This document shows, piece after piece, positions 1 to 30,732 of a stretch of DNA of 64,000 bases; within the stretch, counting starts at the first letter, position 1, and each line of letters opens with the position of its first letter. The translations under genes were made by a program, and so were the position numbers. Location: the NCBI GenBank assembly GCA_045543615.1, contig JAZPXL010000005.1, positions 132,436-196,435 of the forward strand, given 5' to 3'. Below the pieces are notes generated by a model. The model searched no databases. It worked only from the letters and a program-made list of their open reading frames with translations, and was not told the origin of the DNA. The DNA is from Eubacteriales bacterium. GTDB taxonomy: Bacteria; Bacillota; Clostridia; Oscillospirales; CAG-272.

Positions 1-1
1 A

Positions 2-3000
2 TTCAACTGTGATATCGAAGTAGTTGAAGTTGAGGATGAAGAATACGCCGTTTTCGTACTCAACGTATACAATGTTTCCTGTATCGTCTGTGTACTTAGT
101 GTACTCATAACCCTCTTCGACCTCTTCACCGGGAGTCTCTTCTCCATCGGGTGTGGTCGTATCATCGGGTGTTTCGTTGGGATCAACGATTGTCACTGTA
201 ACTGTAACAACCTCGCTTGCGAGCTCGAGAGCTGCCTTAGAGTCAGCAATAGACTTAATAGAATCAGCGTTAACCTTTTCTGCGTTAGCCTTTGTGATCT
301 CGTAAGAGTTCTTAACGGATGCCTTGAATGCATCGTCATAATCAGCACTTTCGCTGTAGAACTTGTTTGCAAACTCTGCGTCAACAAGTGCGTCGTTAGC
401 CTTAGCTACGTGTGTATTCTGGTTCTTGATGTTGTCGGATACTCTCTTAACAAGCGAGCTTACGTTCTTAGTAGCCGATGCATAAGCTGTATCAGCTGCC
501 TTGAGGTCTGCGTCTGCCTGAGCCTTTGCAGCTATTGTAGCATCGGAAGCTGTGATAACTGCGAGAGCGTATGTTTCGATTCCATCATAGAGAGCCTTGT
601 CTGCATCGTATGCAGCCTTGTCAGCAGATGTCTCGAGTGCGTTCTGAGCGTCAACTACGGCTGCCTCTGCTGCTGCAACTGCTGCCTCGCTCTTAAGGAG
701 GTTAGAAACGGAAGTTCTGATAGCTGTCATAACAAGCTTGGAGTTGAAGTCTGAGATTGCTGTGTCAGCTGCTGCCTTCGCTGCCTCTGCTGCCTTGTAT
801 GCATCGGTTGCCTTTGCGTCTGCTGCAAACTTAGTTGTGAAGTCGGTTACTGCCTTATCTGCTGCTGCCTTAGCCTCAGTTGCGGTCTTGTAAGCATCGC
901 TTGCGAGAACCTTTGTATTGTAGTCAGCAAGGAATGCCTCGAGCTTGAGCTGAGTTCCTGCCTCAACACCATTAGCCTCGTCAGCTGCTCTGTACTTAGC
1001 GTCAACTGCTGCTGCAAGCTCTGCGCCAAATGTAGCTGCGATTGCTGCAACATCTGCGTCAGCTGCGCTTGTAGCTGCTTCGATCTTAGCAAGAACTGCC
1101 TCGATAGCTGCGTCTGCTGCATCATCAGCTGCCTTGAGAGCGATGTAAGCTGCGTCAGTTGCGTAGCCGCCGATGAGAGCGTCAACTGCTGCCTGTGCGT
1201 TGTCAGCTGCTGCAACGAGTGCGAGATACTCGGCATTGTCACCGTAAGCAACGGTAAGTGCCTTGAGAGCATCTGCTGCTGCGTTCTGTGCTCTTACAAG
1301 TGCAACATACTCATCGGTATTTGCAGCGTAAACAGCCTTGATGCTTGCAACTGTTGTGTCGTAGATAGCAGTATTGGTTGCGATTGTGTTCTGGAGTGCG
1401 ATATACTCTGCACTTGTGGGATATGTTGCGTTGTAGTTATCAACATAAGCATTAAGTGCTGTGGTTGTTGCGTCGTACTCTGCCTTTGCAGATACGTAGG
1501 TTGCATCCTGGGAAGCGAGGGACTCGTATACTGTGTTGTATGCGGCCTTCTTAGCCTCAAGATCACTCTCTGCTACTGCAATATCAGCTATTGTTGTAGC
1601 AAGGAGATCCTCAAGAATACCAATCTCAACTGCGCCGGGATACGATGTGGTAACTGTTGTGATACCTGTCTCGATGCTGGACTTAAGAGAAGTAAGTGTT
1701 TCTACCTGCTTCTCAGCATCTCTGAGAGCCTTCTTAGCTGCCTTGTAGTCTTCGTTTGAAGCTATTGCTGTCTCAACTGTTGCTACTGCTGCCTCGTAAG
1801 CTGTTGTTGCAGCGTCTGCTGCTGCCTTGAGAGCCTTATATTCATCGGTGTTCTCATAAGCTGTGGGATACTTCTCAAGCTCTGCCTTAGCTTCGGTCAG
1901 TGCTGTGGAAGCTGCGATATAGTTCTGTGCGTTCTCGAGAGTTCCAGCGAACTTCTGAACATCAGCGAGAGCTGTCTGAACCTTTTCATCTGCCGCTGTG
2001 TATTCAGCAGAAGCCTTGTCTGCGATAGCATCGCGAGCTGCTACTGCATTCTCGTATGCTGTAAGCTTTGTTGTGATGATTGCAAATCCGCTGAGCTCAC
2101 CACTTGCGTAAGCGTTGTTGTAAGCCTCAAGCTTCTTTGCGTAGTCTGCGTTTGCGGACTCAAGAGCTGCAACTGCCTTGTCATAAGCTGCGATAAGGCT
2201 TGCGTAGTTGGTGTTTGTGCCGCCGGCAAGAAGTGTCTTGAAGGGAGTATAAATTCCGTTCCAAGTTGTCTTATTGGCTTCAGCCTCAACTATCTTAGCT
2301 GCAAGAGCTTCCTGTGTAGCTACTGCTGCTTCACGAGTTGCCTGTGCTTTCTTTGCAGCGTCAACGAGTGTACCCATACCAATTGTGAATACTACGTAAT
2401 CACCAAGTGCGTATGCACCACCCTGGTAGTAGTGGTTAGCTGTTCTGCAGTACTCAGCAACCTTTTCGCAAGCTGCCTGAGATGTAGTAGCTGCATATAC
2501 ACGACCGTTGAGGAGCTGTTCCTGCTGCTTCTTAGCTGCAAGAGCGTCAGCAGCAAGCTGATTTTCGAGGTTTTCTTTTTCGATTGCCTCTTCGTCAGCG
2601 ATGATCTCATCGGGATCGGGTACGCGTTCGCCTGTGAGGAACTCGTGGCCAACGATCTTCGAAAGCTGGAGATCCTTTGTCAAATCATTGAGCAATGTGT
2701 AGTACTTAACTACGTCTTCCTTAAGGATGTCGTAACGTACAGAATAGTACTCACTGAGTGTAGGATCTTCCTTGAGTTCTTCGTAATTATCGTAACAGAG
2801 TACGAAGTAGAGTCCTGCGCCATTTTCAATTGCCTTAAGCAAGCTGTAACCGATGTTACCTTCCATATTCAGAGGTGTACCTGCGTACTGAACACTACCG
2901 TGGAGTACAACACCGATGAAAGGAATTGCATTGCTGGATGTATTGTAACGGCTGGAATCAAGCGGAACGTTGATAATGTAATCGAGGTACTTCCAGGTGT

Positions 3001-5458
3001 AAGCATTTGCGCTATCTGTCATGACGCTGTCAAAATCAGAATCGAGCTTGCCAAATACGTTCTGTGTGAACTTCTTGGAGTCCTCACGGTTGTAAGGCTC
3101 ATCCTCATCAAAGTCGGAGTTGAGTCCCGAACCGAGTGTGCCTACGGAAATGCCTGCGCTTGCATCTGTGTTCTCATAATAGCTGAGAAGGTTTTCAGAA
3201 AGCTTGTCATAGAAACGAGTATAATATGCGGACGAGATAGCAAGCTCGAAACGTCCAACGTGTGTCTGACGTGTTGCGCTGTAATATCTGCGTGACATAT
3301 ATGTATCGTTGATTGACTTAACGATATGATCCTTGAGGGTCAAACCGTCAAAGAGTGTGTTGGTTGAAGAACGAACATATACGAAGTCGAAGTCAGGGAA
3401 AAGCTCAAAGCCCTTCTCTGCTGAGTAATCGAGCAGCTCGTTGTAACCTGTCTTGCCACCAACTGCGTTTTCCCACTTGAGATGGTAAGGAACTGAGGAG
3501 TACATACCACCGTTCGCATAGCCTGTGAGCTTGAACTTGATGTTGGATACGCCCTGTGCAGAGAGCTCATCATACATTGTCTTGACATTGTCAAAGGATG
3601 TAAGAGGAGTCATTACGTTTACAGGGATGGAAAGGATCTTCTCGAGTGTTTCGAGAGTACCGAACGTCTCGACGTATACAGGAATGTCATCCTTAACATC
3701 ACTCTCTTCAAGTGCAGAAAGTGTTTCTGTGTGGTAGAGGTAATCACGGTAAGCCTCTGCCATACCCATCCAGTTTACAGGATAGTAATCGGTAATTTCA
3801 TTTTCCTTTGCAAGAGCATCATCTGTCAGCATAATGTAACGGATCTTGTAGTTACCGACATACTTACGGGATGATACAACTGTCCAGGTTGCGTTTGCAC
3901 CAACCGAGATAGCGTTTGCAAGGTTGTAGGAGTCCTTTGGTCTGGGGTAGAAGTACATCTGCATTGCATTGTACTTACCTGTCGAACCCATATGGTATGT
4001 AGAAAGCTCTGCGAGAGCATCGCCCTCTTCGATGATAGCTACATATCCCTTGGATTCCTCATAGGTGTATGGAACTTCAACATCCTCATATACAGCCTCT
4101 TCGATAACGTTTCCGTCTGCGTCAAGAACTGCTTCCGTAACAAGCTGCTTTTCAATCTTGGTACGTGTTTCGTGAACGTTGGATACTACACCAAATACAG
4201 GGTAGCGAATTGTCTGCTGGTTAGAACCTGTGATTGTGTTGTATGCGTAGTCTTGGCCGTATACCTTACCATTGATTGTGGTAATGCTTGAGCCTGCGAG
4301 ATCTTCGTGACGGAAGAGCGCGCCGGCTCCATCCGGGAAGAAGTTATAACCTGTGAATGTCTCTTCCTTTTCATCGAGGAGGTAGTTCGCACCTGCGCCC
4401 ATAAAAGGAAGGGGGGAGATGTTGGTCAGCTGGTAGAGAGACTCGTCGAAACGGAGACCGTTCGCAGGGATACGAACTGTTACGCCCCAATCATCGAGTG
4501 TGTACTCCAAAGCCAGCTTGAAGAGTGCGGGAGCTTTATCCTGTCCCTCATACTCGGTGATGAGGTGGTCCTGCTCGAGCTGCTCAAATGTATATGTAGG
4601 AACGTATGTCTTGATATAACCCTCGAGTGTTGTGAGCTCGTTGTTAGTGATATCGGGCGAACATACATATACGTCCATCTTGTTACAGATAGGATAGAGT
4701 GCCTTCAAAGAGTTTCTCTCACGGTCAGTTTCGCACTTTGCGAGTGACTTGAGATCGTAGAAAGCGAGGAACTTGTTGAACTTAAACCATTCGTTGTTTC
4801 TCTTGTCAGGATCTCCTCCACCACTGTCGATGATGATCTGCTGACGCTTTTCAACGGGCATATAGTAATCTCTCCACTCAAGAGATACACCACCGTTTGC
4901 AAGGGAGATCTTGTTAAGCTCTTCTGCGAAGGGGTCAAGAATGTTCTCATCGAATCTCGACTGCTCAACCATACGGGGAACAAGCATTCTTGTCTCTTCA
5001 CGGCCGATACTGTACTCTACTCTGATACCGTTCTTTATGTACTTGAAGTTGATCTGTCCACGAAGAGCAGCTTCCTTGAAGCTTGTCATTGTCTTTTCGG
5101 TATCATTGTCTACATATTTGATGATGAGCTGAGACATAAGTGTCTGCTTAACCGAGGGAGAGGATCCACCGGATGCTACATCATAGGGGTTGGAGAAGAG
5201 GATCTGACCTGTTGTTGCGTTACGAGTTGCTACCTCGCCGGTGAACTCATCAACCCACAGCTGATATCCGTTCTTCTCAAACATCATTGTCATAGTGTCG
5301 AGCTTTTCCTTCTCAGACGCAAATGTGCGTGTGAGGTACTGCTCAACGGTTGCTTCATAGTCTATCGAATCAATAAACTCACCGTTTGAGTTCTTCTCGT
5401 AGATGATCTCAACAGCAGTTGCTGCAGAAATGTCCACGATCAGCGTACCAAAAAGCAT
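2..5458 (-). CDS. Giant secreted protein, 3'-partial, running off the left edge (1819 codons in window). About 950 aa of N-terminal globular, glycoside-hydrolase-like region (possibly DUF5696-like), then about 800 aa of Ala-rich helical repeats. The 5' end is apparently frameshifted; the likely true start is 5493.
   Basis: Absent from the supplied track because it has no stop in the window. Hand translation of the minus strand shows the frame with lowest coordinate = 2 mod 3 has no listed fragments between 5518 and 2. Every short minus-strand track ORF in 1-5001 lies in another frame. It reads MLFGTLIVDISAATAVEIIYEKNSNGEF...GYANGGMYSSVPYHLKWENAVGG...VLHGSVQYAGTPLNMEG..., then Ala-rich repeats, ending ...VFFILNFNYFDITVE at the edge. 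It lies 26 nt downstream of the Yip1 gene stop. Confidence 0.8.
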   Translation of the reverse strand, partial: MLFGTLIVDISAATAVEIIYEKNSNGEFIDSIDYEATVEQYLTRTFASEKEKLDTMTMMFEKNGYQLWVDEFTGEVATRNATTGQILFSNPYDVASGGSSPSVKQTLMSQLIIKYVDNDTEKTMTSFKEAALRGQINFKYIKNGIRVEYSIGREETRMLVPRMVEQSRFDENILDPFAEELNKISLANGGVSLEWRDYYMPVEKRQQIIIDSGGGDPDKRNNEWFKFNKFLAFYDLKSLAKCETDRERNSLKALYPICNKMDVYVCSPDITNNELTTLEGYIKTYVPTYTFEQLEQDHLITEYEGQDKAPALFKLALEYTLDDWGVTVRIPANGLRFDESLYQLTNISPLPFMGAGANYLLDEKEETFTGYNFFPDGAGALFRHEDLAGSSITTINGKVYGQDYAYNTITGSNQQTIRYPVFGVVSNVHETRTKIEKQLVTEAVLDADGNVIEEAVYEDVEVPYTYEESKGYVAIIEEGDALAELSTYHMGSTGKYNAMQMYFYPRPKDSYNLANAISVGANATWTVVSSRKYVGNYKIRYIMLTDDALAKENEITDYYPVNWMGMAEAYRDYLYHTETLSALEESDVKDDIPVYVETFGTLETLEKILSIPVNVMTPLTSFDNVKTMYDELSAQGVSNIKFKLTGYANGGMYSSVPYHLKWENAVGGKTGYNELLDYSAEKGFELFPDFDFVYVRSSTNTLFDGLTLKDHIVKSINDTYMSRRYYSATRQTHVGRFELAISSAYYTRFYDKLSENLLSYYENTDASAGISVGTLGSGLNSDFDEDEPYNREDSKKFTQNVFGKLDSDFDSVMTDSANAYTWKYLDYIINVPLDSSRYNTSSNAIPFIGVVLHGSVQYAGTPLNMEGNIGYSLLKAIENGAGLYFVLCYDNYEELKEDPTLSEYYSVRYDILKEDVVKYYTLLNDLTKDLQLSKIVGHEFLTGERVPDPDEIIADEEAIEKENLENQLAADALAAKKQQEQLLNGRVYAATTSQAACEKVAEYCRTANHYYQGGAYALGDYVVFTIGMGTLVDAAKKAQATREAAVATQEALAAKIVEAEANKTTWNGIYTPFKTLLAGGTNTNYASLIAAYDKAVAALESANADYAKKLEAYNNAYASGELSGFAIITTKLTAYENAVAARDAIADKASAEYTAADEKVQTALADVQKFAGTLENAQNYIAASTALTEAKAELEKYPTAYENTDEYKALKAAADAATTAYEAAVATVETAIASNEDYKAAKKALRDAEKQVETLTSLKSSIETGITTVTTSYPGAVEIGILEDLLATTIADIAVAESDLEAKKAAYNTVYESLASQDATYVSAKAEYDATTTALNAYVDNYNATYPTSAEYIALQNTIATNTAIYDTTVASIKAVYAANTDEYVALVRAQNAAADALKALTVAYGDNAEYLALVAAADNAQAAVDALIGGYATDAAYIALKAADDAADAAIEAVLAKIEAATSAADADVAAIAATFGAELAAAVDAKYRAADEANGVEAGTQLKLEAFLADYNTKVLASDAYKTATEAKAAADKAVTDFTTKFAADAKATDAYKAAEAAKAAADTAISDFNSKLVMTAIRTSVSNLLKSEAAVAAAEAAVVDAQNALETSADKAAYDADKALYDGIETYALAVITASDATIAAKAQADADLKAADTAYASATKNVSSLVKRVSDNIKNQNTHVAKANDALVDAEFANKFYSESADYDDAFKASVKNSYEITKANAEKVNADSIKSIADSKAALELASEVVTVTVTIVDPNETPDDTTTPDGEETPGEEVEEGYEYTKYTDDTGNIVYVEYENGVFFILNFNYFDITVE

Positions 5459-5518
5459 AACAACAGATAAAAGTAATGCAAATATTCTTTTCATTGTAAT
5501 ATTCTCCTTTCCTGTTTG

Positions 5519-7657
5519 TTACATTCGGTAGCTGATCTCGACCACAATGTTGGTAATGAAGCTTACGATCTTACCAAGAAGTGTGGTAAAGAGTATTGCA
5601 ATAAACATAATGAACGCCATTGCAACGATTGTTCCGAGAGAAGTAATGAAGTTTTTAAACAGGGGATAATCGTGTGTTACCATCATACCAATGAATATCA
5701 GGAGAGCTGTCCAGATAAACGCTACCGTTACGATAAGGCTGTTGATATCAAGCTCTTCAACAAGTGCAAAGTTGGAATAGATGGTTGTAGGAATTACTGC
5801 GAAGACGAGAGGAAGCAGTGAGTAGGAGCAAGCAATGAAGATGTCCTTGAAGCTGCCTTCACCGTCGAACAGTGTTGTAAGACACCAGTTAGCGACTACC
5901 CACAGGAACAGAGGAACTAAAACTCCAAGTGCCTGTGCTACGATCGTGGTATACGAACCATAGGGATTTACAAGGTAACCGGAACCGATTGCCTGGTAGA
6001 AGAATGCAAATACTGTTACAAGAACGTAAACAACAGCAGCTCTCAGTGAGCCTCTCTTCTCGTGCTTAAGATCCCAGAAGCCGTCGAACGGGTGGAAAAT
6101 AAGGTGGAAGCCGAAGAGGAGCTCCTCAACAAATGTTCTCTTTCCGCCTGCTGTCTCTGCACGCTTATTGATCTTAGCCGCCTTCTTGAATACGAAGACT
6201 ACTGCAGCAATAAGAATGCCAACGATAAGCGGGATAAGAAGAACGTAATTGGAAATCCAGTTCTTACGAATTTCCTTATAAGAGTCTGACCAACCGCTTA
6301 TATCGTATGCTGCCTCGAAATACTTGAGAGCCTCTTCGTACTCACCGTTACGGTAGAGTGCGTCGCCGATACCGATGTATGCAGCGTCGAAGTTCTGGTT
6401 TCTCTTAAGAATTTCTGTCCAGTCATTGATAGCACGGTCGAACTGACGGTTGTTCTGGTTTGCAAGAGCCTGAATGAGAATGTCACCGTACTCTGTGCGC
6501 TGATATACCGTGATGCTGTCCTGAGTCTTATCAAGAACGAGCATTGTACCGTCGCTCATATATGTGATAGCCTCAATGCTCTTGAGGTTACCGAGCTGAG
6601 AGCCTGCGTCACCAAACGCAAACAGGAGGTTGCCGTCGTAGTCGTAGGTGAAGATCTTCTGACGCTTTTCGTCGATGATCGACCAGGTGTTCTCAGGTCC
6701 TACTGCTACGTCGATGATCTTGGATACGCCCTGTGCGAGCGATCCGTCGGCCGTGGTGTGAGCCATATCGATCTCACCTGAAGGCGGCCAGAAGCCGTTA
6801 CGAGACATTACCTCGTCACCGGACTGGTTGATAAGCTTTACAGGGGCGTAGTCACCGGATTTGGACTTTCCTCTGATAGCACTTTCAACAGATGAATCCT
6901 CGATTGTCGATGTGGTTACATAAATGAAGCCCTTCTCGTTAATCGTGATGTTGTTAAACTCTGTTGAAACGTAATCGATTGAGAGTTCCTTCTGCTCATC
7001 CGTCTGGAACATTCTCCAGATACGGTCCCAAGCAGAGATTGTAACCTTCTGCGCTCCAACAAACTTGATAAATTCGCCGTCATCGTTCATAACGATGATA
7101 CCCTGGTAGGTAGTGGAGGATACAACGTAGAGACGGTTGTAATCGTCAACTGCAACTGCAACAGGCTTATAAACATCGTCATTCTCAAAAAGATTACTTT
7201 CAGGCTGAGGAATAACTCTAAGGAAGTTACCGTCACGGTCGAATGTTACGATACGGTTCTGGTCTGTATCACAGATGAAGATTCTGTCGGAGGTAACAAA
7301 TACGCCCTTGGGGTTGTTAAGGGAGTCCGGAACACCCTCGTCGTTTGTGAACTTGGAGATAGTGAACTTGAGCTTGAAGTAACGGTCAAGAACGATGATT
7401 CTATCATTACCACTATCGGCAATGTAGACATTGTCTTTGTCGTCAACTACAAGATCGCCGGGATCGTCGATAACCGAAGGAAGACCCATATAGGTCGAAT
7501 CGATCATCTTGATAGGTGTGTACGCATCAGGTGAATAGAGCGCGTAACCGTCGATGGAGTATGTGTATGTCTGGTAGGACTTCACTGCTCCGACGGGGGC
7601 TGCGAGCAAGAGCACCATAGCGAAGACAAAGGCGATAACACTGATTAATTTCTTCAT
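5519..7657 (-). CDS. Fusion protein: signal peptide, NHL-repeat beta-propeller, TPR-like segment and a C-terminal Yip1-family polytopic membrane domain
   Basis: 712-aa ORF. ATG at 7657 with AAGGAGG upstream. N-terminus MKKLISVIAFVFAMVLLLAAPVGA. About six NHL-like blades (DNVYIADSGNDRIIVLD, DRIFICDTDQNRIVTFDRDGNF, NRLYVVSSTTYQGIIVMNDDGEF, KIFTYDYDGNLLFAFG, GTMLVLDKTQDSITVYQ). TPR-like GDALYRNGEYEEALKYFEAAY. One TM plus about 5 C-terminal TM helices typical of Yip1-domain proteins. Confidence 0.8.
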   Translation of the reverse strand: MKKLISVIAFVFAMVLLLAAPVGAVKSYQTYTYSIDGYALYSPDAYTPIKMIDSTYMGLPSVIDDPGDLVVDDKDNVYIADSGNDRIIVLDRYFKLKFTISKFTNDEGVPDSLNNPKGVFVTSDRIFICDTDQNRIVTFDRDGNFLRVIPQPESNLFENDDVYKPVAVAVDDYNRLYVVSSTTYQGIIVMNDDGEFIKFVGAQKVTISAWDRIWRMFQTDEQKELSIDYVSTEFNNITINEKGFIYVTTSTIEDSSVESAIRGKSKSGDYAPVKLINQSGDEVMSRNGFWPPSGEIDMAHTTADGSLAQGVSKIIDVAVGPENTWSIIDEKRQKIFTYDYDGNLLFAFGDAGSQLGNLKSIEAITYMSDGTMLVLDKTQDSITVYQRTEYGDILIQALANQNNRQFDRAINDWTEILKRNQNFDAAYIGIGDALYRNGEYEEALKYFEAAYDISGWSDSYKEIRKNWISNYVLLIPLIVGILIAAVVFVFKKAAKINKRAETAGGKRTFVEELLFGFHLIFHPFDGFWDLKHEKRGSLRAAVVYVLVTVFAFFYQAIGSGYLVNPYGSYTTIVAQALGVLVPLFLWVVANWCLTTLFDGEGSFKDIFIACSYSLLPLVFAVIPTTIYSNFALVEELDINSLIVTVAFIWTALLIFIGMMVTHDYPLFKNFITSLGTIVAMAFIMFIAILFTTLLGKIVSFITNIVVEISYRM

Positions 7658-7667
7658 TGTTGCCTCC

Positions 7668-8540
7668 TTAATCCTTCATACCGCTCGAGCCCATTGTCTC
7701 GATAATATTAGACTGTGCAATTACGAATACCGTAATCGGAACGAGCATCATAATTACCGTTGCAGCAGCACTTGCGCCTGCACGCTTGATACCACCTGCG
7801 GTAATCTGCTGAATTGCATAGTTGAATGACTTGTACTGCTCGGAATGGATGTAGATTGTTGAACCGGCATTCCACAGATCCTGGAAGCAGTAGATGATAA
7901 GTGTAAGCCAAGCAGGCTTAACCATCGGCATTGCGATTGTCCAGAATGTGCGCCACTCGCTTGCACCGTCGAGTCTTGCAGATTCAAGAACAGAGTTGTT
8001 AACGTTAGTCTCCATAAACTGCTTCATCAGGTACAGACCGAGCGTTGATCCCCAAGCAGGAATGATAAGCGCAAGAGGTGTATCGATGAGGTGGAGGAAG
8101 CTCATAATGATGAAGTTTGTAACAGCTGTAACTGTCTTATGGAACATCAGAGATGTACGAATGGTTTTGAATATCCATCTGTGTCCGGGGAACTTGATCT
8201 TAGCAAGTGCGTATGCTGCCATCGAGCCGAACAGAAGGTTACCTGCTGTACCAAATACTGATACGACAACAGTGTTGAATATGTATCTCGAGAAAGGAAC
8301 CCACGAAGTGTTCATCAAAACGAACAGGTCGGAGAAGTTTTGAAGTGTGGGGTTCATAACGTAGAACTTGGGCGGGAACATCCACAGCTCATCAAGAGGC
8401 TTGAGTGCCTGCATTACTGTGTAGAGCATCGGGAGGAACATAAACGCTCCAAGTATTATCAGCATAATGCTGATTCCAAGGTCGCCACCGACAGAACGGT
8501 TAAGAACGACTTTATGTTTTCTTGTTCTAAGCCTTGCCAT
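7668..8540 (-). CDS. Carbohydrate ABC transporter permease (CUT1 family, MalG-like)
   Basis: 290-aa ORF with 6 predicted TM helices. EAA loop ESARLDGASEWRTFWTIAMPMVKP. ATG at 8540 lies 1 nt after the upstream permease stop. Confidence 0.9.
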   Translation of the reverse strand: MARLRTRKHKVVLNRSVGGDLGISIMLIILGAFMFLPMLYTVMQALKPLDELWMFPPKFYVMNPTLQNFSDLFVLMNTSWVPFSRYIFNTVVVSVFGTAGNLLFGSMAAYALAKIKFPGHRWIFKTIRTSLMFHKTVTAVTNFIIMSFLHLIDTPLALIIPAWGSTLGLYLMKQFMETNVNNSVLESARLDGASEWRTFWTIAMPMVKPAWLTLIIYCFQDLWNAGSTIYIHSEQYKSFNYAIQQITAGGIKRAGASAAATVIMMLVPITVFVIAQSNIIETMGSSGMKD

Positions 8541-8541
8541 C

Positions 8542-9489
8542 TTACTGACCTACCTTTGAGAGCATTTTCTTAACCAGCGAGTTTGCGCCGATCATAATAA
8601 GGAAGAGTACCACAGCGATTGACGAAGAGTATCCGACCTCAAATCGTGCTCCGCCGTAGTCGTTGAGGTGGTGCATAATCGTCCACGCACAATAGTCAAC
8701 TGAGGGGTTACCGCAAAGTGCATCAACAACTCCACCGAAGCCGAAGGAGCTTGTGATTGTCATAACGGCACCGAACATCAGCTGAGGCTTCATCGTGGGA
8801 AGAGTGATGTACCACAGCTCCTGCCAACGGTTGCGGACACCGTCAACCGCACCTGCTTCGTAAAGGGAACGGTCAATGCCCTGCAAACCTGCGATAAATG
8901 ACAGGAAGGATGTACCGAGGGACGTCCACAACGCAACTACTATACACAGAGGCATTACGTATGTGGCGTTCTCGAAGAAGAGGATTTCTTCATTTATTAA
9001 TCCCAAATTCAAGAGTGTTGCGTTTACCCATCCGTAGGAGTCTCCTGAGAAGAGTACGCCCCAGATAAGATACGCCTGACCCGAAATAGAGGGAGCATAG
9101 AAGATAAGGGTTACTACCGCACGGATCTTAGGCTCAAGCTCGTTGATGAACCACGCTACCATAAAGGAAAGCAGGTAGGAAACAGGGCCGACGATCACGG
9201 CAAAAATCAATGTGTTCTTGACAGCGATAAGGAAAATGTCGTCATCAAGGAAAAGGCGGATGTAGTTATCCATGAATACGAAGTTAGGCGTCTGAATCAT
9301 GTTAAAGTCTGTGAAACTCATAAACATTGATACCAGAACCGGTGCAACTGTAAAGAGCGTAAACACGAGAACATAGGGGGCAATCATAAGATATGCGACC
9401 CAGTTACGCTTCATCTCTTTCCAAGTCCACTGAAGCCTTGTCATATCCTTTCTGGATACAGCCTTTTTTGTTGCTGTTTTCTGTGACAT
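8542..9489 (-). CDS. Sugar ABC transporter permease (CUT1 family, MalF-like)
   Basis: 315-aa ORF. EAA loop YEAGAVDGVRNRWQELWYITLPTMKP. AAGGAGA RBS before ATG 9489. Confidence 0.9.
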   Translation of the reverse strand: MSQKTATKKAVSRKDMTRLQWTWKEMKRNWVAYLMIAPYVLVFTLFTVAPVLVSMFMSFTDFNMIQTPNFVFMDNYIRLFLDDDIFLIAVKNTLIFAVIVGPVSYLLSFMVAWFINELEPKIRAVVTLIFYAPSISGQAYLIWGVLFSGDSYGWVNATLLNLGLINEEILFFENATYVMPLCIVVALWTSLGTSFLSFIAGLQGIDRSLYEAGAVDGVRNRWQELWYITLPTMKPQLMFGAVMTITSSFGFGGVVDALCGNPSVDYCAWTIMHHLNDYGGARFEVGYSSSIAVVLFLIMIGANSLVKKMLSKVGQ

Positions 9490-9524
9490 GAACTTTTTTC
9501 TCCTTGTTTAGATTTCGGGTTACG

Positions 9525-12500
9525 TTAATCTATCGGGTAGGATGCCTGATACTTCTTGAGAGCATCTGCACAAGTCTTGATGTATGTGTCGATGTTCTTG
9601 AGAATCTGTGCGTCTTCTGCATTTGCGCAGGATGCTGCAGCCTCTGCAAGCGTTGCACCTGCTGTGCGAAGTGCGTCAATGTAGCTGTCGTGACAGTATG
9701 CTGAGAATGTTGCTTCTGTCTCGATTGCGTTAAGAGCATTCTTTACTCCGTCAATCTCTGCCTTATACTGAGAAGCTGTTGCCTCGCTAAGCGAACCAAA
9801 GCCGTACTCATCACCAAGGATCCAAGCTGCACGCTTGCTTGCGAGAGTCTCACCAACCTCAAGTGTCTCAAGGCCGAACTCTGAACGCTTACGTGTGATT
9901 TCCTTGTTAATGGTTGTAACGTAGCTGAGAAGCTCGTTTACAGGGTTAGCCATATCGTTGTATGCGGAGAGGAATGCGAAGTTGGTATAACGACCAATGA
10001 TGTATGCACCGGGGTAGTTAGGAATGGATGCCAGGTTGTTGAACTGGGACATCAGGTTGGTGAATTCCTTGTTTGTCCAAGGCATTTCAGACAGAGCCGT
10101 GATGTTTGCAGTAGCGTGCTTAGCGGAGTCACCGAGGATTGCAACCATCTCGTTGGAGTATGCGATCTGGCAGCCTGCGCTGGAGTGCCACTTCATAAAT
10201 TCCCAAGCCTTTTCCTTATCGTCGCAGCCGTTGATCATAACGATTGCGGATACTGAGGAAACTGCGGTGTTGTTGATCTTACCTGTCTCTTCGTCACGGT
10301 AACCGGGCAGCGGAACGAATTCCCAAAGACCACGAAGCTCGGTTGCGAATACGATGAGGTGGTTGTATGTGCCGTTGTAGCCTGCAATACCGATGGGCAT
10401 TTCGCCTGTACGGAAACGGTTTACAAAGTCATACTTGTAGGGGAAGGAATACTGTGTAAACATATTACACATTGTCTCGAAGGAGTCAAGTGCTGCGTTG
10501 GAGTTGAGGTTGATTCTCATTCCGTCATCAGCAAAGAGCTCACCACCACTCTGGTAGAGGAAGATCTTATAGTCGGTGCTAAGACCGATTGTCATATTGT
10601 TCTCAGAGAGCGTTGTAGCTGCGGAGAGAAGGTCATCCCAGGTGTCGAGCTTATCAATACCGAGGTCTGCAAGGATATCGGTACGGATGAACATCATCGA
10701 GAAGGACTGAGTCTCGGGCAGACCGTAATAGTGCATTACATTGTCTGCGTCTGCAATACCAAGAACGAGCATTGCTGCATCGTTGAACTGTGCATTGGGA
10801 TTGCGAACGGGCTGACCGTTCTCGTCATAGACTGTGTTGAAGTTTTCGTCAACCTTATAATAAAGAGCTGTATCTGCAAAGTCCTTATTATTTTCAATAG
10901 GAAGAATTGCGCCACGGATAGCGAAGTTGATAACATCGTTGTCACCAAGACCGATATATACGTCAGGTCCCTGTCCGGAGAGGATCGAGGGAAGAAGTGT
11001 ACCACCTGCAACGAGCTTGAGGTCAACCGTGATACCGTGGTTAGGTGTAAAATCGTTGTTGATGAGGTTACGGATAACCTGTGTCTGGTCACGACCATAA
11101 GCAAGCCACACCTCTGTTGCATCAGCGGCACCTGCTGTGTCTTCGGTAGCACCCATACGGTCATAGTTACGGAAGAAGCTCCACCAGAATCTTGCAAGCT
11201 CGTGGATGAATGCCTGGAAGAAGTTTGCCTCTGCAACGGGCTTCTCTGCTTCTGCAGCCTGGATTACGATGTAGTCAAGCTGGAGGGGCTGTGTCTTCGC
11301 ATCACTCAGCCAAGTACCAAGGTTACCGATGTAAGCCTTGAGCTGCTTGAGGTTCTTTGCAATCTCATCCTCATCGTTACCCATTCTGTCAAGCAGCCAG
11401 GTAATCTTTTCAAGAGTTGCAACGTTGGAGCTCTTTACGCCTGCGAGAGCAACAAGCTCTTTTGCAACCTTTTCAATCTCCTTGGACTGAAGAATAAGGT
11501 CGATGATCGTGTCAGGCATAACCGTTGAGAAGTAGTAGTTACGGTCAGAGTCGGGCTCTGCGCCTGTGAGTCTCATTATATTAAGGTAAGCATTGTTGAT
11601 TGTTGTGAGGGATTCGTCGATCTTACGAACGATCTCAGACATAGTACCAAGTGCAACCTCAAATTCGATTGTATACTCAACACCGGCCTCAAAGTAGAAC
11701 TCGATGTCAACATATTCAACCTGGTTGTTACCCTTTGCATCGGTAGTTACGATACCGTACTGAAGGGGGGCTACCTGCCAATCTGTGGAGTAGTTGAAAC
11801 GAAGCTCTCTTGCCTCGTCGAAGGGAATGCCGTTGTAGTAACCGTCATCGCCCTCATTAAGACCCTTACTATAAATGTAAATGGTTCTTGAGCTGTACAT
11901 ACCATCATTGATGTTCTGGATGTAACGAGGGATGATCTGATACATACCGCTGGACTCAACGGTGAATGTATAAGCTACTCTCTGTCCCGATGTCTGCCAC
12001 TTATCACCACCTATGGTGTTGAGAAGTGTACGGTCGGTTTCAGAGGGGCTTGTTACTGCGGAAGAGCTCTCCTCTATCGGATAAACCGTGTTAGTGGAGG
12101 TATATGTAGGAAGCTCAGCTTCGATCTTTATGCTGTCGCCGCCTGCTGTCTTATCGCTGTAAGACTCCTTATACTCATCATAGGAGACGGGTGCTTCGTA
12201 AGGATAGAGGGTGATGGACTCGATAGCCATAGGCTGTGCAACGCCTTCCATAGATATCGTGTGAGTTCCCTCTGTGAAGTAGAACTCAAAGTAGTCCTTG
12301 TAGAAACCGTCAACGTCCTTAAGGCTGAACTCACGCCATTCAGGTGTCTGGTCGGGAGTGCCACGAAGCTCGTTATTGTCCATATCGGTTTTGAACGGAC
12401 GCTTTACACCGTCGATCTCATACTCGAAGGAAGGATCGTAGGTTGTTGTCCAGATCTTCGGGAGCGTAATGTAGTACGCCTCGGAGAAAGGTACTTTACC

Positions 12501-12929
12501 GTCGATTCTGAAAATTCTCTGAATCGAGGTGGACTTGTCTACGATGGGCCAATAGTTGAGCTTGATCGCATAAAGTCCTGTTGCGGGAATATCTACCTTG
12601 TAAGAGAGAATTCCGCTTTCGGGTGAAACAATCGCCTCGACGCCGTCAAATGTCTCGATCTTGACATCCTTCACGGTTGTGCCGTCAGTGTCATATGCCG
12701 AGCCCTTGATAACGACCTCTTGGGTTGCTTTGGGTTCTTCAGAGTACTTTTTGTGGTACTCTTCGTACGAAATTGTGCCGAGTAGCTCTTTAGCAGCTGC
12801 AATCGCCTGCTGGGTAACTGTCTGTTCAGTTGTGCTCGAATCGGCTGCAGATACCGGAACGAGGAAGGATGAGATCAGACAGAGGGCCGCAAGCGTGATA
12901 GCTACTACTCTTTTGAATTTCGCTGCCAT
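9525..12929 (-). CDS. Oversized (1134 aa) extracellular solute-binding protein: signal peptide, two CBM6/35-like beta-sandwich modules, helical linker, family-1 SBP core and a C-terminal helical extension
   Basis: AGGAGG RBS before ATG 12929. Signal MAAKFKRVVAITLAALCLISSFLVPVSA/ADS. CBM-like patterns are GILSYKVDIPATGLYAIKLNYWPI and KIEAELPTY...VAYTFTVESSGMYQIIPRYIQ. The SBP-like core starts near EVWLAYGRDQTQVIRNLINNDFTPNHGITVDLKLV. It is the first gene of the permease operon. Confidence 0.8.
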   Translation of the reverse strand: MAAKFKRVVAITLAALCLISSFLVPVSAADSSTTEQTVTQQAIAAAKELLGTISYEEYHKKYSEEPKATQEVVIKGSAYDTDGTTVKDVKIETFDGVEAIVSPESGILSYKVDIPATGLYAIKLNYWPIVDKSTSIQRIFRIDGKVPFSEAYYITLPKIWTTTYDPSFEYEIDGVKRPFKTDMDNNELRGTPDQTPEWREFSLKDVDGFYKDYFEFYFTEGTHTISMEGVAQPMAIESITLYPYEAPVSYDEYKESYSDKTAGGDSIKIEAELPTYTSTNTVYPIEESSSAVTSPSETDRTLLNTIGGDKWQTSGQRVAYTFTVESSGMYQIIPRYIQNINDGMYSSRTIYIYSKGLNEGDDGYYNGIPFDEARELRFNYSTDWQVAPLQYGIVTTDAKGNNQVEYVDIEFYFEAGVEYTIEFEVALGTMSEIVRKIDESLTTINNAYLNIMRLTGAEPDSDRNYYFSTVMPDTIIDLILQSKEIEKVAKELVALAGVKSSNVATLEKITWLLDRMGNDEDEIAKNLKQLKAYIGNLGTWLSDAKTQPLQLDYIVIQAAEAEKPVAEANFFQAFIHELARFWWSFFRNYDRMGATEDTAGAADATEVWLAYGRDQTQVIRNLINNDFTPNHGITVDLKLVAGGTLLPSILSGQGPDVYIGLGDNDVINFAIRGAILPIENNKDFADTALYYKVDENFNTVYDENGQPVRNPNAQFNDAAMLVLGIADADNVMHYYGLPETQSFSMMFIRTDILADLGIDKLDTWDDLLSAATTLSENNMTIGLSTDYKIFLYQSGGELFADDGMRINLNSNAALDSFETMCNMFTQYSFPYKYDFVNRFRTGEMPIGIAGYNGTYNHLIVFATELRGLWEFVPLPGYRDEETGKINNTAVSSVSAIVMINGCDDKEKAWEFMKWHSSAGCQIAYSNEMVAILGDSAKHATANITALSEMPWTNKEFTNLMSQFNNLASIPNYPGAYIIGRYTNFAFLSAYNDMANPVNELLSYVTTINKEITRKRSEFGLETLEVGETLASKRAAWILGDEYGFGSLSEATASQYKAEIDGVKNALNAIETEATFSAYCHDSYIDALRTAGATLAEAAASCANAEDAQILKNIDTYIKTCADALKKYQASYPID

Positions 12930-13204
12930 TGTGGTTCCTCCTAAATGTGAATTTGCGGATCAGATCCGCGGAGATGTTTCCGCCGATTTGTTGCTGACTG
13001 GCAATTGCCGCGAGCCTGCGTAGCAGTTCGGGTGCGGAAAGGACCGTCCTGCTTGTTTTTTTGTTGTTTTTCTGAGCATATGTCGGTTGGCGACGGCAAA
13101 TCCTCTGAAAAACAGAAAATTTTGTGGCTCTGCTTCCCTAAAACCGTGGCCCTGAATGGCTTTTGGTTATCGGGGCGGCAAAATGCCTTAAAATTTATAT
13201 AGAT

Positions 13205-13233
13205 ATAATATCATAAGAGCTCAAAATAGTCAA
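13205..13233 (-). promoter_or_regulatory. Candidate sigma-A promoter for the SBP operon (TTGACT-17-TATTAT), implying a 5' leader of about 270 nt
   Basis: On the minus strand, TTGACT is at 13233-13228 and TATTAT at 13210-13205, with exactly 17 nt between them. It sits in an AT-rich non-coding region upstream of 12929. Confidence 0.4.
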
Positions 13234-13792
13234 CAGTTAGTTAAAATCCATTCAAAATTTAGAGACAATTTTGAATTAAAATTTCAACAATTAGTTCTAA
13301 CGGTCAAATGAACGCTTATTGTTAAATTCAAAAAAATTTGCGCACTTTGACGAGTTGTTAATTTTTGATAGTAAAGCAAATTTACACAAAACAAACTCAT
13401 TCTCTCCATTAAACATTCAAAGAATCAACTTTTCGCCATCATTTTCGCTTTTCATATTCGACAATGATCAACGAAGGTAATTTTCAGTTACCTGTCATTA
13501 AGCCAATAGTTGCGCTTGCAACCATTTGTTTCGATTTTTCCATTGTGCAAAATACACAATTTTGAGGGCGTTTTTTCTACATCTATACATTTTGCACAAA
13601 TCGTTTCGAATTTGCGTTTTTTTGCTCATTTTTGTAAGTTTTTGCACGCATTTTTCACATATTTCCGTGGTAATTTACTTTTTTTTACAGATTTTTTAAT
13701 TCTGCTTTTTTGCTGTTTTTGCTTCCTTCCACCGTCTCGTCTCCACTTTCTCGTCATCCCCATTTCATCCTTCGGTTTGTTGCGCAAACAAA

Positions 13793-13836
13793 GAAAAGCC
13801 AAGCACGCTGACAATGTCAGCGTGCTTGGCTTTTCT
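13793..13836 (-). terminator. Rho-independent terminator after the 13860-14618 gene
   Basis: 15-bp perfect stem GCCAAGCACGCTGAC / GTCAGCGTGCTTGGC (13798-13812 / 13816-13830), flanked by A and T runs. Confidence 0.75.
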
Positions 13837-13859: not shown

Positions 13860-14618
13860 TTAAGGCTTTGTTGTCGACTGAATGTCATTTTCTCCTGACA
13901 CATAGGACATAAAGAGCTTTACTGTCGAAACGTCGGACACGGAAAAAGCCACATAGCTTGCTTCCTCTATGTCATCTCCTGCCTCTTTTTCTGCATCAAG
14001 CACATTTGCGTGTGAAACGAATAACCACTTGTTCTTCTCTGTCAAGTGGATTATTCTTCCCACCTGATTTGTGAGTATTGCTGAGCCATCATAAGCGAAA
14101 TACACATCGAAATACTCAAAAGTACGAGTGCCGTCATCGTCGACATAATCTGCCATTTCCAAAACGGTTCTGCTTGTAAGTCCGTTTAGAGCGCAGATAA
14201 GGGAGATATCCTCCTCGTCTTCCTCAATTATTGCAAAATTATCGAGCACAACTCTTGTAACTGCGCTGTCCTCGCTCTCAATTCCGTCACAAAGCTCGCC
14301 ACTCTCGGTATAGAGAATACGCCTCGTTCCGTTTGCGATCGCAAGGTACTTGCCGGTCGCATCGTCTTTAACACGATAGAGCGAAGCACCGTAGGTTCTG
14401 TCCCCTACTCTGCCCAGATAATCGCCGAATCTGAACATATATTCATCATCACCGTCGACAGCGTGATACGAAACGCCCTCATAGACAATAACTCGCACAT
14501 CTCCACCGTACTCTGCAACGACGGGGTTGGTGGCGCAATAGTCACAATACGCAAACAGCGTAACGAGAAGTGGCAGTATGACTATGATAGCTATAATAAT
14601 CAGTGCTCTTTTGGTCAT
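13860..14618 (-). CDS. Hypothetical N-terminally membrane-anchored protein
   Basis: 252-aa ORF with ATG at 14618. N-terminal TM MTKRALIIIAIIVILPLLVTLFAY, followed by an acidic soluble domain. No family recognised. Confidence 0.6.
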   Translation of the reverse strand: MTKRALIIIAIIVILPLLVTLFAYCDYCATNPVVAEYGGDVRVIVYEGVSYHAVDGDDEYMFRFGDYLGRVGDRTYGASLYRVKDDATGKYLAIANGTRRILYTESGELCDGIESEDSAVTRVVLDNFAIIEEDEEDISLICALNGLTSRTVLEMADYVDDDGTRTFEYFDVYFAYDGSAILTNQVGRIIHLTEKNKWLFVSHANVLDAEKEAGDDIEEASYVAFSVSDVSTVKLFMSYVSGENDIQSTTKP

Positions 14619-19968: not shown

Positions 19969-19981
19969 TTTGGGCTCCTCC

Positions 19982-21868: not shown

Positions 21869-21886
21869 AGTAATCCTCCTTTATCC

Positions 21887-22384
21887 TCAATCCTTGTACT
21901 TAGCGAGGATAGTAGCAACGTCAGCCTTTGTAAGTCTGCCGTATACCTCACCGTTAACCGTGAGAACAGGTGCAAGACCGCACGCACCGATGCAACGGGT
22001 AGCCTCAAGCGAGTACTTACCGTCAGGGCTTGTTCCACCCTCTTCGATGCCAAGCTGCTTTGAGAATTCCTCGAGTATCTCGCCCGAACCCTTAACGTAG
22101 CAAGCTGTACCGAGACAGATAGCAATAGCTACCTCGCCATTGGGATTGAGCTTGAACTGTGAGTAGAAGGTAACGATACCGTAGATCTCCTCAACAGGAG
22201 TGTCGGTCTTCTCAGCGATAATGCGCTGTACCTCGATGGGAAGGTAGCCGTAGATTTCCTGAGCTTCCTGGAGTATGGGCATCATCTTACCCCTGACTCC
22301 ATCGTACTTGGCAATTACGGCAAGAAGCTTCTCTTCCTGCTCGGGAGTGCCGCGAAATTCGACCGTAGTCAATTTCTTTTTCAT
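21887..22384 (-). CDS. hydC: Hydrogenase NuoE-like 2Fe-2S subunit (HydC)
   Basis: 165 aa. CLGTACYVKG...ATRCIGACGLAPV thioredoxin-like ferredoxin pattern. AGGAGGA RBS. First gene of hydCBA. Confidence 0.9.
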   Translation of the reverse strand: MKKKLTTVEFRGTPEQEEKLLAVIAKYDGVRGKMMPILQEAQEIYGYLPIEVQRIIAEKTDTPVEEIYGIVTFYSQFKLNPNGEVAIAICLGTACYVKGSGEILEEFSKQLGIEEGGTSPDGKYSLEATRCIGACGLAPVLTVNGEVYGRLTKADVATILAKYKD

Positions 22385-22874: not shown

Positions 22875-23276
22875 TTATCTCTTTGAGAACTGGGATGCAC
22901 GACGAGCAGCCTTGAGACCGTACTTCTTTCTTTCCTTCATACGAGGATCGCGAGTAAGGAAGCCTGCTGCCTTGAGTGCGGGCTTGTTTGCCTCGTCAGC
23001 GAGAACGAGAGCACGGGAGAGGCCGTGGCGAATTGCGCCTGCCTGTCCGGAGAAACCACCGCCTGTTACGTTAGCAACGATGTCATACTTGCCAACATTG
23101 CCTGTAACCTCGAAGGGCTGGTTTACGATGAGCTTCATTGTAGCGAGACCGAAGTATTCGTCGATGTCTCTGCCGTTAATGGTGATAGCACCTGTTCCGG
23201 GATATACTCTTACACGAGCAACGGATTTCTTTCTTCTGCCGGTTCCGTAGAAATAAGGCTTTGCACTTGTATACAT
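22875..23276 (-). CDS. rpsI: 30S ribosomal protein S9
   Basis: 133 aa ending ...[28 protein letters not shown]. Confidence 0.97.
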
Positions 23277-23303
23277 TTGTTAATCTCCTTTCTACTTCTT
23301 CGA

Positions 23304-23729
23304 TCAGTCGATAGCAACGGGCTTCTGAGCCTGGTGCTTGTGAGCTTCGCCTGCATATACGTGCAGTCTTGTCATCGACTTGCGGCCGATGGTGTTTGCG
23401 GGGAGCATTCTCTTTACAGCGAGCTCCATAGCCATCTCGGGACGGGTTGCCATAAGTGTCTTGTACTGAATGGACTTGAGGCCGCCGATATAGCCGGAAT
23501 GATGACGATAGTACTTCTGCTCAAGCTTTCTGCCTGTCAGAACTGCCTTGTCAGCGTTGATGATGATTACGTACTCGCCGCAGTCAACGTGGGGTGTGAA
23601 CTCGGGGCGATGCTTGCCGCGAAGAATGTTTGCGGCCTTAACTGCCGTTCTACCAAGGGGCTTGCCTGCTGCGTCGATAACGTACCAGCGGCGCTCCACG
23701 GTCTCGGGCTTTGCCATGTAAGTGGACAT
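23304..23729 (-). CDS. rplM: 50S ribosomal protein L13
   Basis: Start set at ATG 23729 (GGAGGAAACAAAATG), giving [20 protein letters not shown]... (141 aa). The 169-aa track version adds an unsupported extension. Confidence 0.95.
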
Positions 23730-23784
23730 TTTGTTTCCTCCAAATAAATTCTCGGGGCATAGTACCCCCTTTTCAGACTTGCTT

Positions 23785-30701: not shown

Positions 30702-30732
30702 TTTGCACCTCCCGTATTTTTGTCAGCTCTCA

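Follow-up and report, generated by a model that had tools for sequence, protein, structure and literature searches.

We analyzed a 64,000-nucleotide stretch of DNA from a Eubacteriales bacterium (GenBank assembly GCA_045543615.1, contig JAZPXL010000005.1, positions 132,436 to 196,435; we will call this the window). At one end of the window is an operon that combines genes for an ATP-binding cassette (ABC) transporter with a gene for a giant secreted protein of the DUF5696 family, and we propose that it may capture, cut, and import an extracellular glycan. On the minus strand, there are four complete open reading frames (ORFs), which run from 12929 to 9525 (1134 amino acids), from 9489 to 8542 (315 amino acids), from 8540 to 7668 (290 amino acids), and from 7657 to 5519 (712 amino acids). 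These encode a giant solute-binding protein (SBP), two permeases (P1 and P2), and a membrane protein with NHL, TPR, and Yip1 domains. A fifth frame, which encodes the DUF5696 protein, begins with an ATG at 5494 and extends for 1831 codons, as far as position 2, without meeting a stop. The gaps between the genes are 35, 1, 10, and 24 nucleotides, and a Shine-Dalgarno-like sequence (GGAGG, AGGAG, or AAGGAG) lies 6–10 nucleotides 5' of each start. All of this agrees with a first-pass annotation of the window, which reported five co-directional genes with junctions of 1–35 nucleotides and a ribosome-binding site for each, except that its start for the giant gene (5493) was off by one.

To find relatives of the operon, we looked on long contigs for proteins homologous to the DUF5696 core and scanned one genome per GTDB species. 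At least 484 relatives were confirmed in species-level genomes, and we fetched the best 80 loci, which are from 80 separate genome records. We examined 88 related loci (L001–L088), using tblastn with the five proteins from the window and with the two permeases that follow their counterparts at locus L001, and scored the gene order wherever sequence was available. Everywhere with enough sequence, the order is SBP, P1, P2, NHL/Yip1, DUF5696, and then two more permeases, P3 and P4, all on one strand. The order is kept as the identity of the DUF5696 protein drops from 73% to about 40%; a distant branch at about 40% identity, with compact DUF5696 proteins of 950–980 amino acids, has the identical seven genes. 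So the five genes and their shared direction were correctly described, but the unit is a seven-gene cassette, with a second permease pair in all relatives. In the genome studied here, two further permease genes should lie beyond position 1 of the window. Given the lengths of the ORFs, the E-values of the domains, and the strict synteny, the operon is far beyond chance.

The first-pass annotation had stated that the series SBP, permease, permease, YIP1 family protein, and DUF5696 protein recurs in the genomes of Clostridia and Paenibacillus, and knew of no functional characterization. The series is real and is strictly co-conserved in the 88 loci, but no Paenibacillus is among the matches listed (the best 80–150 for each homologue search). 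The top-ranked relatives among these matches are all from uncultured gut or rumen Clostridia. When we used the distant member P0382 to look for cultured or differently organized relatives, we found only uncultured Clostridia with the identical seven-gene order. A literature search for DUF5696 or PF18952 gave no paper that mentions either, and a search that combined Yip1, SBP, ABC, and permease gave nothing relevant. Neither the giant protein nor the Yip1 fusion matches a well-characterized family within a utilization locus that has been described.

The DUF5696 protein, the transporter, and the Yip1 fusion

In its N-terminal 960 amino acids (2615–5494, minus strand), the giant protein has a signal peptide followed by the DUF5696 core. 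(The SBP, which is the other extracytoplasmic protein of the window, also has a signal peptide.) The match to DUF5696 (PF18952 in Pfam) has E = 2.7e-119, scores 399.9 bits (the cutoff is 25.6), and is in two stretches across amino acids ~314–954. DUF5696 is a large family, with 3,940 clusters at 50% identity (E ≤ 0.001), all of which are annotated as hypothetical or as DUF5696. The first 960 amino acids are about 50% identical over the 120 best-scoring clusters of homologues.

We used AlphaFold2 to predict the folds of the DUF5696 core and of the SBP, and compared the models to the PDB with Foldseek. The model of the DUF5696 core (built from 30 sequences; pLDDT 80.5, pTM 0.76) begins with a beta-sandwich that includes a helical insertion (amino acids ~30–600) and continues with a (beta/alpha)8 barrel (amino acids ~600–950). 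The best matches found are glycoside hydrolases (GHs) of the GH129 type (E = 4e-21 to 1e-17, TM-score normalized to the target of 0.64–0.66). These include the GH129-like DagB from Zobellia (5opq; E = 4.4e-21, target TM-score 0.66) and NagBb from B. bifidum, which belongs to GH129 (5wzp/5wzn; E = 8e-19, target TM-score 0.65), both at a probability of 1.00. Foldseek also found GH101 endo-alpha-GalNAc-ases (E = 1e-12 to 1e-9, target TM-scores of ~0.2–0.3) and, from GH31, sulfoquinovosidase, MYORG, and YicI (E from ~1e-10 to 1e-8, target TM-scores of 0.36–0.46). DagB consists of a beta-sandwich, a TIM barrel, and a C-terminal Ig-like domain (PMC5698469), and the catalytic domains of GH129 and GH101 have been recognized as similar (PMC8106489). 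The predicted structure has the components of the GH129 fold (a beta-sandwich, a (beta/alpha)8 barrel, and a C-terminal beta domain), and we predict that the DUF5696 protein is built in three parts, like the retaining alpha-glycosidases of GH129, GH101, and GH31. Because of this predicted fold, the processing enzyme that the first-pass annotation had postulated is probably the DUF5696 protein. That annotation also stated that the operon has no recognized enzyme. At the sequence level this holds, and a scan against NCBIfam linked the giant protein to no known enzyme family, but the core is predicted to fold like glycosidases.

Several carboxylates at the ends of the barrel's strands are invariant or nearly so in 30 sequences that are 51–67% identical to the query: E609, D701/D703, D794/D796/E797, D805, D838, and E890. 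The most conserved peptide of the family, SDFDE[DK][ED]P, follows strand beta-4 of the barrel. In the GH31/GH129/GH101 superfamily, the nucleophile is carried after beta-4. We take the catalytic nucleophile of GH129 to be the aspartate D435 in NagBb, or D486 in DagB, and we take D416 to be the nucleophile of E. coli YicI. NSDFDE resembles KTDFGE, which surrounds D416 in the sequence of YicI, although the likeness is only local. The acidic peptide after beta-4 is suggestive of a nucleophile site, and only that.

After the core comes an alanine-rich insert (amino acids ~965–1790, or ~830 amino acids; 125–2602, minus strand), which we delimited from its composition and from compact homologues. 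The insert is 23–26% alanine, helix-prone, and of low complexity; when we compared a profile of this region to the PDB, only coiled-coil or low-complexity chains matched. (Tandem Repeats Finder found no relevant repeats in the DNA of the alanine-rich region, and we dropped an origin by tandem repetition.) Among homologues, the insert varies from 0 to ~1500 amino acids and lies between the TIM barrel and a C-terminal beta piece. In the compact homologues P0348 (952 amino acids) and P0470 (956 amino acids), ...HEFL... is joined directly to the C-terminal beta piece. Since the insert can be absent, both of its ends join one globular body, and from this we infer a hairpin-like stalk whose length is specific to the species.

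The C-terminal beta piece starts with YTKYTDDTGNIVYVEYENGVFFILNFNYFDITVE (1–106, minus strand), and homologues have this conserved motif at their C-terminus whatever their length. In GH129-like enzymes, the counterpart of the beta piece is probably the Ig-like domain at the C-terminus. The motif, ...FILNYN.F.VTV..G..Y.I..., is interrupted by the edge of the window after ITVE. Given this interruption and the length of the closest homologue (P0241, with 1859 amino acids), the window stops about 60–75 nucleotides, or about 20–25 residues, before the giant gene's stop codon.

The giant SBP (9525–12929, minus strand) begins with a signal peptide (12840–12929). Pfam's SBP_bac_1 (E = 3.5e-19) is confined to amino acids 618–918 of its 1134. 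In the full-length model (pLDDT 83.1, pTM 0.78), the signal peptide is followed by two all-beta modules (amino acids ~64–246, at 12192–12740, and amino acids ~258–430, at 11640–12158), a four-helix bundle (amino acids 430–545), a fold of the CUT1 type (amino acids ~549–1017, at 9879–11285), and a C-terminal helical bundle (amino acids 1029–1130). A Foldseek search with the whole chain was dominated by the SBP fold. The core resembles SBPs for oligosaccharides, with target TM-scores of 0.73–0.80: the sophoro-oligosaccharide binder 5ysb scored 0.80, and the other matches include 9xf5 (cycloisomaltooligosaccharide), 5f7v (cycloalternan), maltodextrin binders, and MalE. The two all-beta modules had been described as similar to carbohydrate-binding modules (CBMs) of families 6 and 35. 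This is unsupported by hidden Markov models: CBM_35 (E = 0.086 and 0.063) and Golvesin_C (E = 0.006–0.08) both fall short of the cutoff, and a profile of module 2 against the PDB gave nothing credible. We dropped the assignment to CBM6 or CBM35. The modules are modeled as all-beta only, and calling them "CBM-like" would be a structural guess.

SBPs of Gram-positive bacteria are typically lipid-anchored. An alignment of orthologues of the giant SBP shows a conserved AxA cleavage site and no conserved lipobox cysteine, so this SBP is probably not lipid-anchored and would need a protein as its tether.

P1 (8542–9489, minus strand) is similar to MalF and UgpA; it matches BPD_transp_1 in Pfam, and its best match in NCBIfam is UgpA. 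P2 (7668–8540, minus strand) is similar to MalG and UgpE; it also matches BPD_transp_1, and it matches GlcU, UgpE, and MalG in NCBIfam. Our scans for EAA loops and transmembrane segments gave the EAA-type motif YEAGAVDGVRNRWQELWYITLP in P1, and P2 contains ESARLDGASEWRTFWTIAMP. P3 and P4, which we analyzed from locus L001, are MalF-like and MalG-like, respectively, and all four permeases have EAA loops. The first-pass annotation viewed the SBP and the two permeases as a sugar importer of the CUT1 type (TC 3.A.1.1), and Pfam, NCBIfam, the EAA scan, and the fold of the SBP all concur. The SBP has both the SBP_bac_1 domain and target TM-scores of up to 0.80 to binders of this class, P1 and P2 are two BPD_transp_1 subunits with EAA loops, and P3 and P4 are likewise. 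No ATPase of the MsmX/MalK type was found among the window's ORFs that were scanned with Pfam (six ORFs of at least 150 amino acids were not scanned).

P1 is 63–89% identical over more than 80 loci, and P2 is 71–90% identical across loci. Across L001–L088, these permeases are far more conserved (63–90%) than the SBP (44–72%) or the DUF5696 core (46–73%). We also noticed that P4 is about 75 amino acids longer than P2 and that P3 has a gap of about 100 amino acids between its third and fourth hydrophobic segments, which is possibly an extracytoplasmic loop. The conservation of the permeases, together with these extra parts of P3 and P4, hints at docking surfaces.

The membrane protein between P2 and the DUF5696 protein (712 amino acids; 5519–7657, minus strand) was analyzed with Pfam, sequence matches to the PDB, and a scan for transmembrane helices. 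It has a signal peptide or anchor, an NHL propeller (amino acids ~26–392), TPRs (393–466), a transmembrane helix (472–490), a basic linker that is predicted to be cytoplasmic, and a Yip1 domain with five transmembrane helices (518–712). The Yip1 match (PF04893; E = 2.1e-17, 64 bits against a cutoff of 28.6) covers amino acids 518–686, and there are five hydrophobic segments. NHL scored 29.3 bits, against a cutoff of 20, and TPR_16 was matched as well. The propeller has sequence matches in the PDB to six-bladed NHL propellers, namely Pizza6 (3e-15), TRIM71, and the PknD sensor 1rwi (1.8e-10). The proposed fusion of an NHL propeller to a Yip1 protein therefore stands.

Hydropathy and the positive-inside rule suggest that the NHL propeller and the TPRs are outside, followed by the transmembrane helix, the basic linker, and the five Yip1 helices. 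Conservation among 78 orthologues is highest in HPFDGFWDLKHEKRGS, NWCLTTLFDGEGS, and VTHDY, which are predicted to be on the cytoplasmic face. The motifs in the Yip1 domain (5519–6180 in the window) contain many His, Asp, Cys, and Glu residues. They may form an interface to a partner, a metal site, or an active site, and the conservation of the cytoplasmic face hints at an intracellular partner or activity. The one functional precedent that we found for a bacterial Yip1 protein is YknW, which modulates the assembly of the ABC transporter YknXYZ in B. subtilis (PMC4887032). Analogy to YknW is our one argument for the role as a scaffold or sensor that the first-pass annotation suggested, and such a role would be conjectural.

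We propose, with the chances about evenly balanced, that Gram-positive gut Clostridia use the cassette to capture an extracellular glycan, cut it, and import it, and that DUF5696 is an enzyme with a distantly related GH fold. The secreted DUF5696 enzyme would hydrolyze or transglycosylate an extracellular polymer, probably an alpha-linked one. The SBP, extended by its two beta-sandwich modules and its helical bundles, would capture the oligosaccharide products, and the two CUT1 transmembrane dimers would import them, energized by a shared ATPase of the MsmX/MsmK type that is encoded elsewhere. The NHL-TPR-Yip1 protein would keep the non-lipidated SBP and the enzyme, which lacks an anchor, at the membrane, or else, like YknW, would organize the assembly of the transporter. 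The variable alanine-rich insert would be a stalk or spacer that projects from the enzyme through the cell wall.

Upstream DNA and neighboring genes

At every locus, an unusually long intergenic region precedes the SBP gene. In the window, it contains a conserved module (13476–13602, minus strand) with TTTGTGCAAAATGT, GTAGAAAA, and two palindromes. One palindrome, tTTGTGCA-N3-TGCACAAa (or TGTG-N7-CACA), has its copy in the window at ~13543–13559. The other, GGTAAAT-N3-ATTTACC (or GGTAA-N7-TTACC), is at 13476–13492, and GGTAA-N6-9-TTACC occurs nowhere else in the 64-kb window. In loci L004–L088, the module is 450–870 nucleotides 5' of the SBP's ATG. We compared 56 homologous upstream regions to shuffled sequences, and all four elements were enriched: TTGTGCAA is found in 29 of the 56 regions (0.9 expected), GTAGAAAA in 27 (2.4 expected), TGTG-N7-CACA in 16 (0.64 expected), and GTAA-N6-9-TTAC in 45 (5.2 expected). 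In the same comparison, the TGTG/CACA palindrome was not enriched at spacings of N6 or N8. The module looks like operators for dimeric regulators that are encoded outside the cassette, and it is a candidate operator or promoter region for the cassette.

A candidate sigma-70-like promoter (TTGACT-17-TATTAT with an extended TG; 13205–13233, minus strand) lies about 275 nucleotides 5' of the SBP's ATG. It was identified only by matching the consensus, and this block is 80–86% identical only in the closest loci (L006, L008, L009, and L012). We also noticed a short GC-rich hairpin at 12968–12983, 20–30 nucleotides 5' of the ribosome-binding site of the SBP gene. It is next to an A-rich stretch, is not terminator-like, and recurs in diverged loci with a different sequence; it may be a 5' stabilizer or a translational element. 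A riboswitch or leader RNA was rejected: scanning the 1.1-kb upstream region against Rfam gave no credible family, just chance matches below the threshold, mostly on a terminator hairpin.

That strong terminator hairpin (13793–13835) separates the cassette from a gene for a 252-amino-acid protein (13860–14618, minus strand), which has an N-terminal membrane anchor and no match in Pfam, PADLOC, or elsewhere. Only the 10 closest loci have this gene immediately upstream of the cassette and in its orientation. We looked in the flanks of the related loci for conserved regulators, ATPases, or catabolic genes, and none were conserved.

The other neighbors in the window include a Na/Pi cotransporter and a HydABC-type hydrogenase, while secA, dnaE, the gene for PBP1, murB, and whiA are 20–35 kb from the cassette. 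The [FeFe] hydrogenase is encoded by three genes (18214–22384, minus strand), with a NuoG-like N-terminus on the large subunit, a NuoF-like subunit, and a NuoE-like 2Fe-2S subunit. It is of the electron-bifurcating type, which is ordinary for Clostridia, and it confirms that the organism is an anaerobic fermenter. Several ORFs of the window lack Pfam matches: those of 475 and 236 amino acids that are directly upstream of secA (29274–31443, minus strand; nothing at 1e-5), one of 240 amino acids (23025–23747, plus strand; nothing at 1e-3), and one of 428 amino acids (61380–62666, minus strand; nothing at 1e-5).

Weighing the proposed role

Several results weigh against a glycan-degrading and importing cassette. 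For the giant protein, Pfam at E ≤ 0.01 finds DUF5696 alone and no GH family. Comparing the giant protein to the sequences in the PDB with phmmer, including 5wzn and 5opq, gave nothing at E ≤ 1, and a profile of its homologues matched only coiled-coil or low-complexity chains in the PDB. So at the level of sequence, the protein does not belong to GH129. Aligning the family's profile to E. coli YicI (GH31) with hhalign gave a probability of 0.5% and an unusable alignment; the protein does not join GH31 by sequence or profile either, and the Foldseek matches to GH31 have TM-scores of just 0.3–0.46. The catalytic residues are unmapped, and the loop with SDFDEDEP has a pLDDT of only ~64. The beta modules of the SBP reach significance for no CBM family, whether we used the whole N-terminus or 14 orthologues of module 2. 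Why one SBP should come with two pairs of permeases has no explanation. The cassette also lacks parts that utilization loci of Gram-positive bacteria typically have: at the loci examined, it contains no ATPase, no cytoplasmic glycosidase, kinase, or isomerase, and no regulator, nor do the flanks consistently contain a regulator. Finally, the flanks are housekeeping genes that vary by lineage: alaS (at 25 loci), nifS/nifU, spoIIIAA, sufBD, and genes for ribosomal proteins and tRNA synthetases.

Some of these results would be expected if the cassette were a housekeeping system of the cell envelope. The GH-like enzyme would trim or remodel a glycopolymer of the cell's own wall or capsule, the importers would recycle the fragments, and the NHL-TPR-Yip1 protein would couple these activities to envelope growth. 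The cassette is embedded in the core genome among housekeeping neighbors and lacks a regulator or a catabolic enzyme; its permeases are very highly conserved (63–90%); each of the 80 genome loci is from a different genome record; and the length of the stalk differs between species, as the thickness of the wall or capsule might. However, because the neighbors vary by lineage, they do not link the cassette functionally to envelope genes. Also, the SBP's fold matches binders of nutrient oligosaccharides, the conserved operator-like site upstream suggests that expression is regulated rather than constitutive, and no envelope polymer is known for these uncultured organisms. We consider an envelope role to be unlikely.

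We also considered that DUF5696 might be a non-catalytic pseudo-glycosidase that serves as a stalked surface receptor or adhesin, with the cassette binding and importing ready-made oligosaccharides. This seems hard to square with the acidic residues at the strand ends, including SDFDEDEP, which are invariant in the 30 sequences at 51–67% identity. Furthermore, hundreds of species share about 50% identity in the 960-amino-acid core, which fits a constrained active site better than a binding surface. The idea does draw on the unmapped catalytic residues, on the absence of sequence similarity to active GH families, and on the long coiled-coil-like stalk, which is typical of adhesins. Also, one of the two catalytic residues of NagBb is not conserved in DagB, so the fold tolerates turnover of the active site (PMC5698469). 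On balance, we think a pseudo-glycosidase is improbable.

A bolder version of our proposal is that the cassette is an extracytoplasmic glycan machine that belongs to the core genome of a large clade of uncultured gut Clostridia, in which a stalked enzyme of a new GH family occupies the binding-protein slot of its own permease pair and passes its products straight to the transporter, and the NHL-TPR-Yip1 protein assembles it with the SBP module into one complex. We give this just a small chance. If true, no enzyme-coupled type I ABC importer would have been described before, and a bacterial Yip1 fusion would for the first time have an assigned function. Least probable of all, we think, is an arrangement of two transport modules (SBP with P1P2 and DUF5696 with P3P4, with DUF5696 docking on P3P4 so that cleavage is coupled to translocation, and with the NHL-TPR-Yip1 protein as a bridge): it would account for the symmetrical order that is invariant in all loci (an extracytoplasmic protein, a MalF-like permease, and a MalG-like permease, twice, with the Yip1 gene between), for a single SBP beside two complete transmembrane dimers that both have EAA loops, and for an enzyme with no anchor of its own, but no type I ABC importer is known to us in which an enzyme takes the place of the SBP, Pfam and Foldseek detected no SBP-like domain in the DUF5696 protein, and it would be simpler for one SBP to serve both sets of permeases or for P3P4 to use an orphan SBP. 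Models for anti-phage defense systems (PADLOC) had 0 matches for all six proteins, and we dropped that explanation.

If the fold prediction holds and the protein is active, then DUF5696, which is a large family without literature, would be a new GH family that is related to GH129, GH101, and GH31 by structure only. Those families act on mucins and alpha-glycans. (In the GH129 literature from 2021 onwards, we found no link to DUF5696.) The seven-gene cassette would be missed by the present pipelines for annotating carbohydrate-active enzymes and polysaccharide utilization loci (PULs). If its substrate were identified, we would know what this core trait does for the bacteria of the Oscillospirales type that carry it, which are abundant, uncultured, and associated with fiber or mucus. 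The cassette is also a tractable case for the role of bacterial Yip1 proteins beside ABC transporters. It could explain what an importer requires a second permease pair and a binding protein of 1100 amino acids for, and it raises the question of what an enzyme gains from a helical insert that varies by species from 0 to 1500 amino acids.

Comparison with known systems

We found no described counterpart for the invariant seven-gene architecture, for the double permease pair, for a non-lipidated SBP of 1100 amino acids, or for an NHL-TPR-Yip1 fusion in combination with a stalk insert of variable length. Parts of the cassette do resemble known systems. The closest likeness in predicted structure is to GH129 and GH129-like enzymes (NagBb and DagB) and, distantly, to GH101 and GH31: the DUF5696 protein shares their predicted order of three domains and has acidic residues at the ends of the barrel strands. 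Yet its identity to GH129-like enzymes is about 10%, and no relationship is detectable with hidden Markov models or profiles. The DUF5696 core is about 300 amino acids larger, with a helical insertion at amino acids ~178–313, and has the alanine-rich insert of 0–1500 amino acids before the C-terminal domain. Furthermore, the DUF5696 protein is secreted, as judged by its signal peptide, and its gene is inside an operon for an ABC transporter.

As a transporter, the cassette is similar to the oligosaccharide importers of the CUT1 type in Firmicutes that use a shared MsmX/MsmK ATPase, such as the Listeria systems of Lin1841 (sophoro-oligosaccharide) and Lmo0181 (cycloalternan). They have in common the SBP_bac_1 fold, MalF-like and MalG-like permeases with EAA loops, and an operon that lacks an ATPase gene. 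In contrast to those importers, the cassette's SBP is 2.5 times larger, with extensions of about 550 amino acids at the N-terminus and about 110 at the C-terminus, and has no conserved lipobox. The cassette also has two permease pairs, and the genes for the Yip1 fusion and for the GH-like giant protein are interleaved among its transporter genes.

YknW, like the cassette's Yip1 protein, is encoded with an ABC transporter. But YknW's partner is a MacB-type exporter, and YknW lacks a large extracytoplasmic domain, whereas the Yip1 domain of the cassette is fused to an NHL propeller and TPRs and accompanies type I importers.

Finally, in the Gram-positive PULs (gpPULs) of Lachnospiraceae and Ruminococcaceae, which are also gut Clostridia, a candidate secreted enzyme for glycans is encoded together with an ABC transporter for sugars, as it is here. 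Unlike gpPULs, the cassette has neither a transcriptional regulator nor intracellular glycosidases in it or beside it; in place of a regulator gene, there is only the conserved operator-like site in the DNA. And while gpPULs are variable and accessory, the cassette is part of the core genome, and its genes are in one invariant order in at least 80 species.

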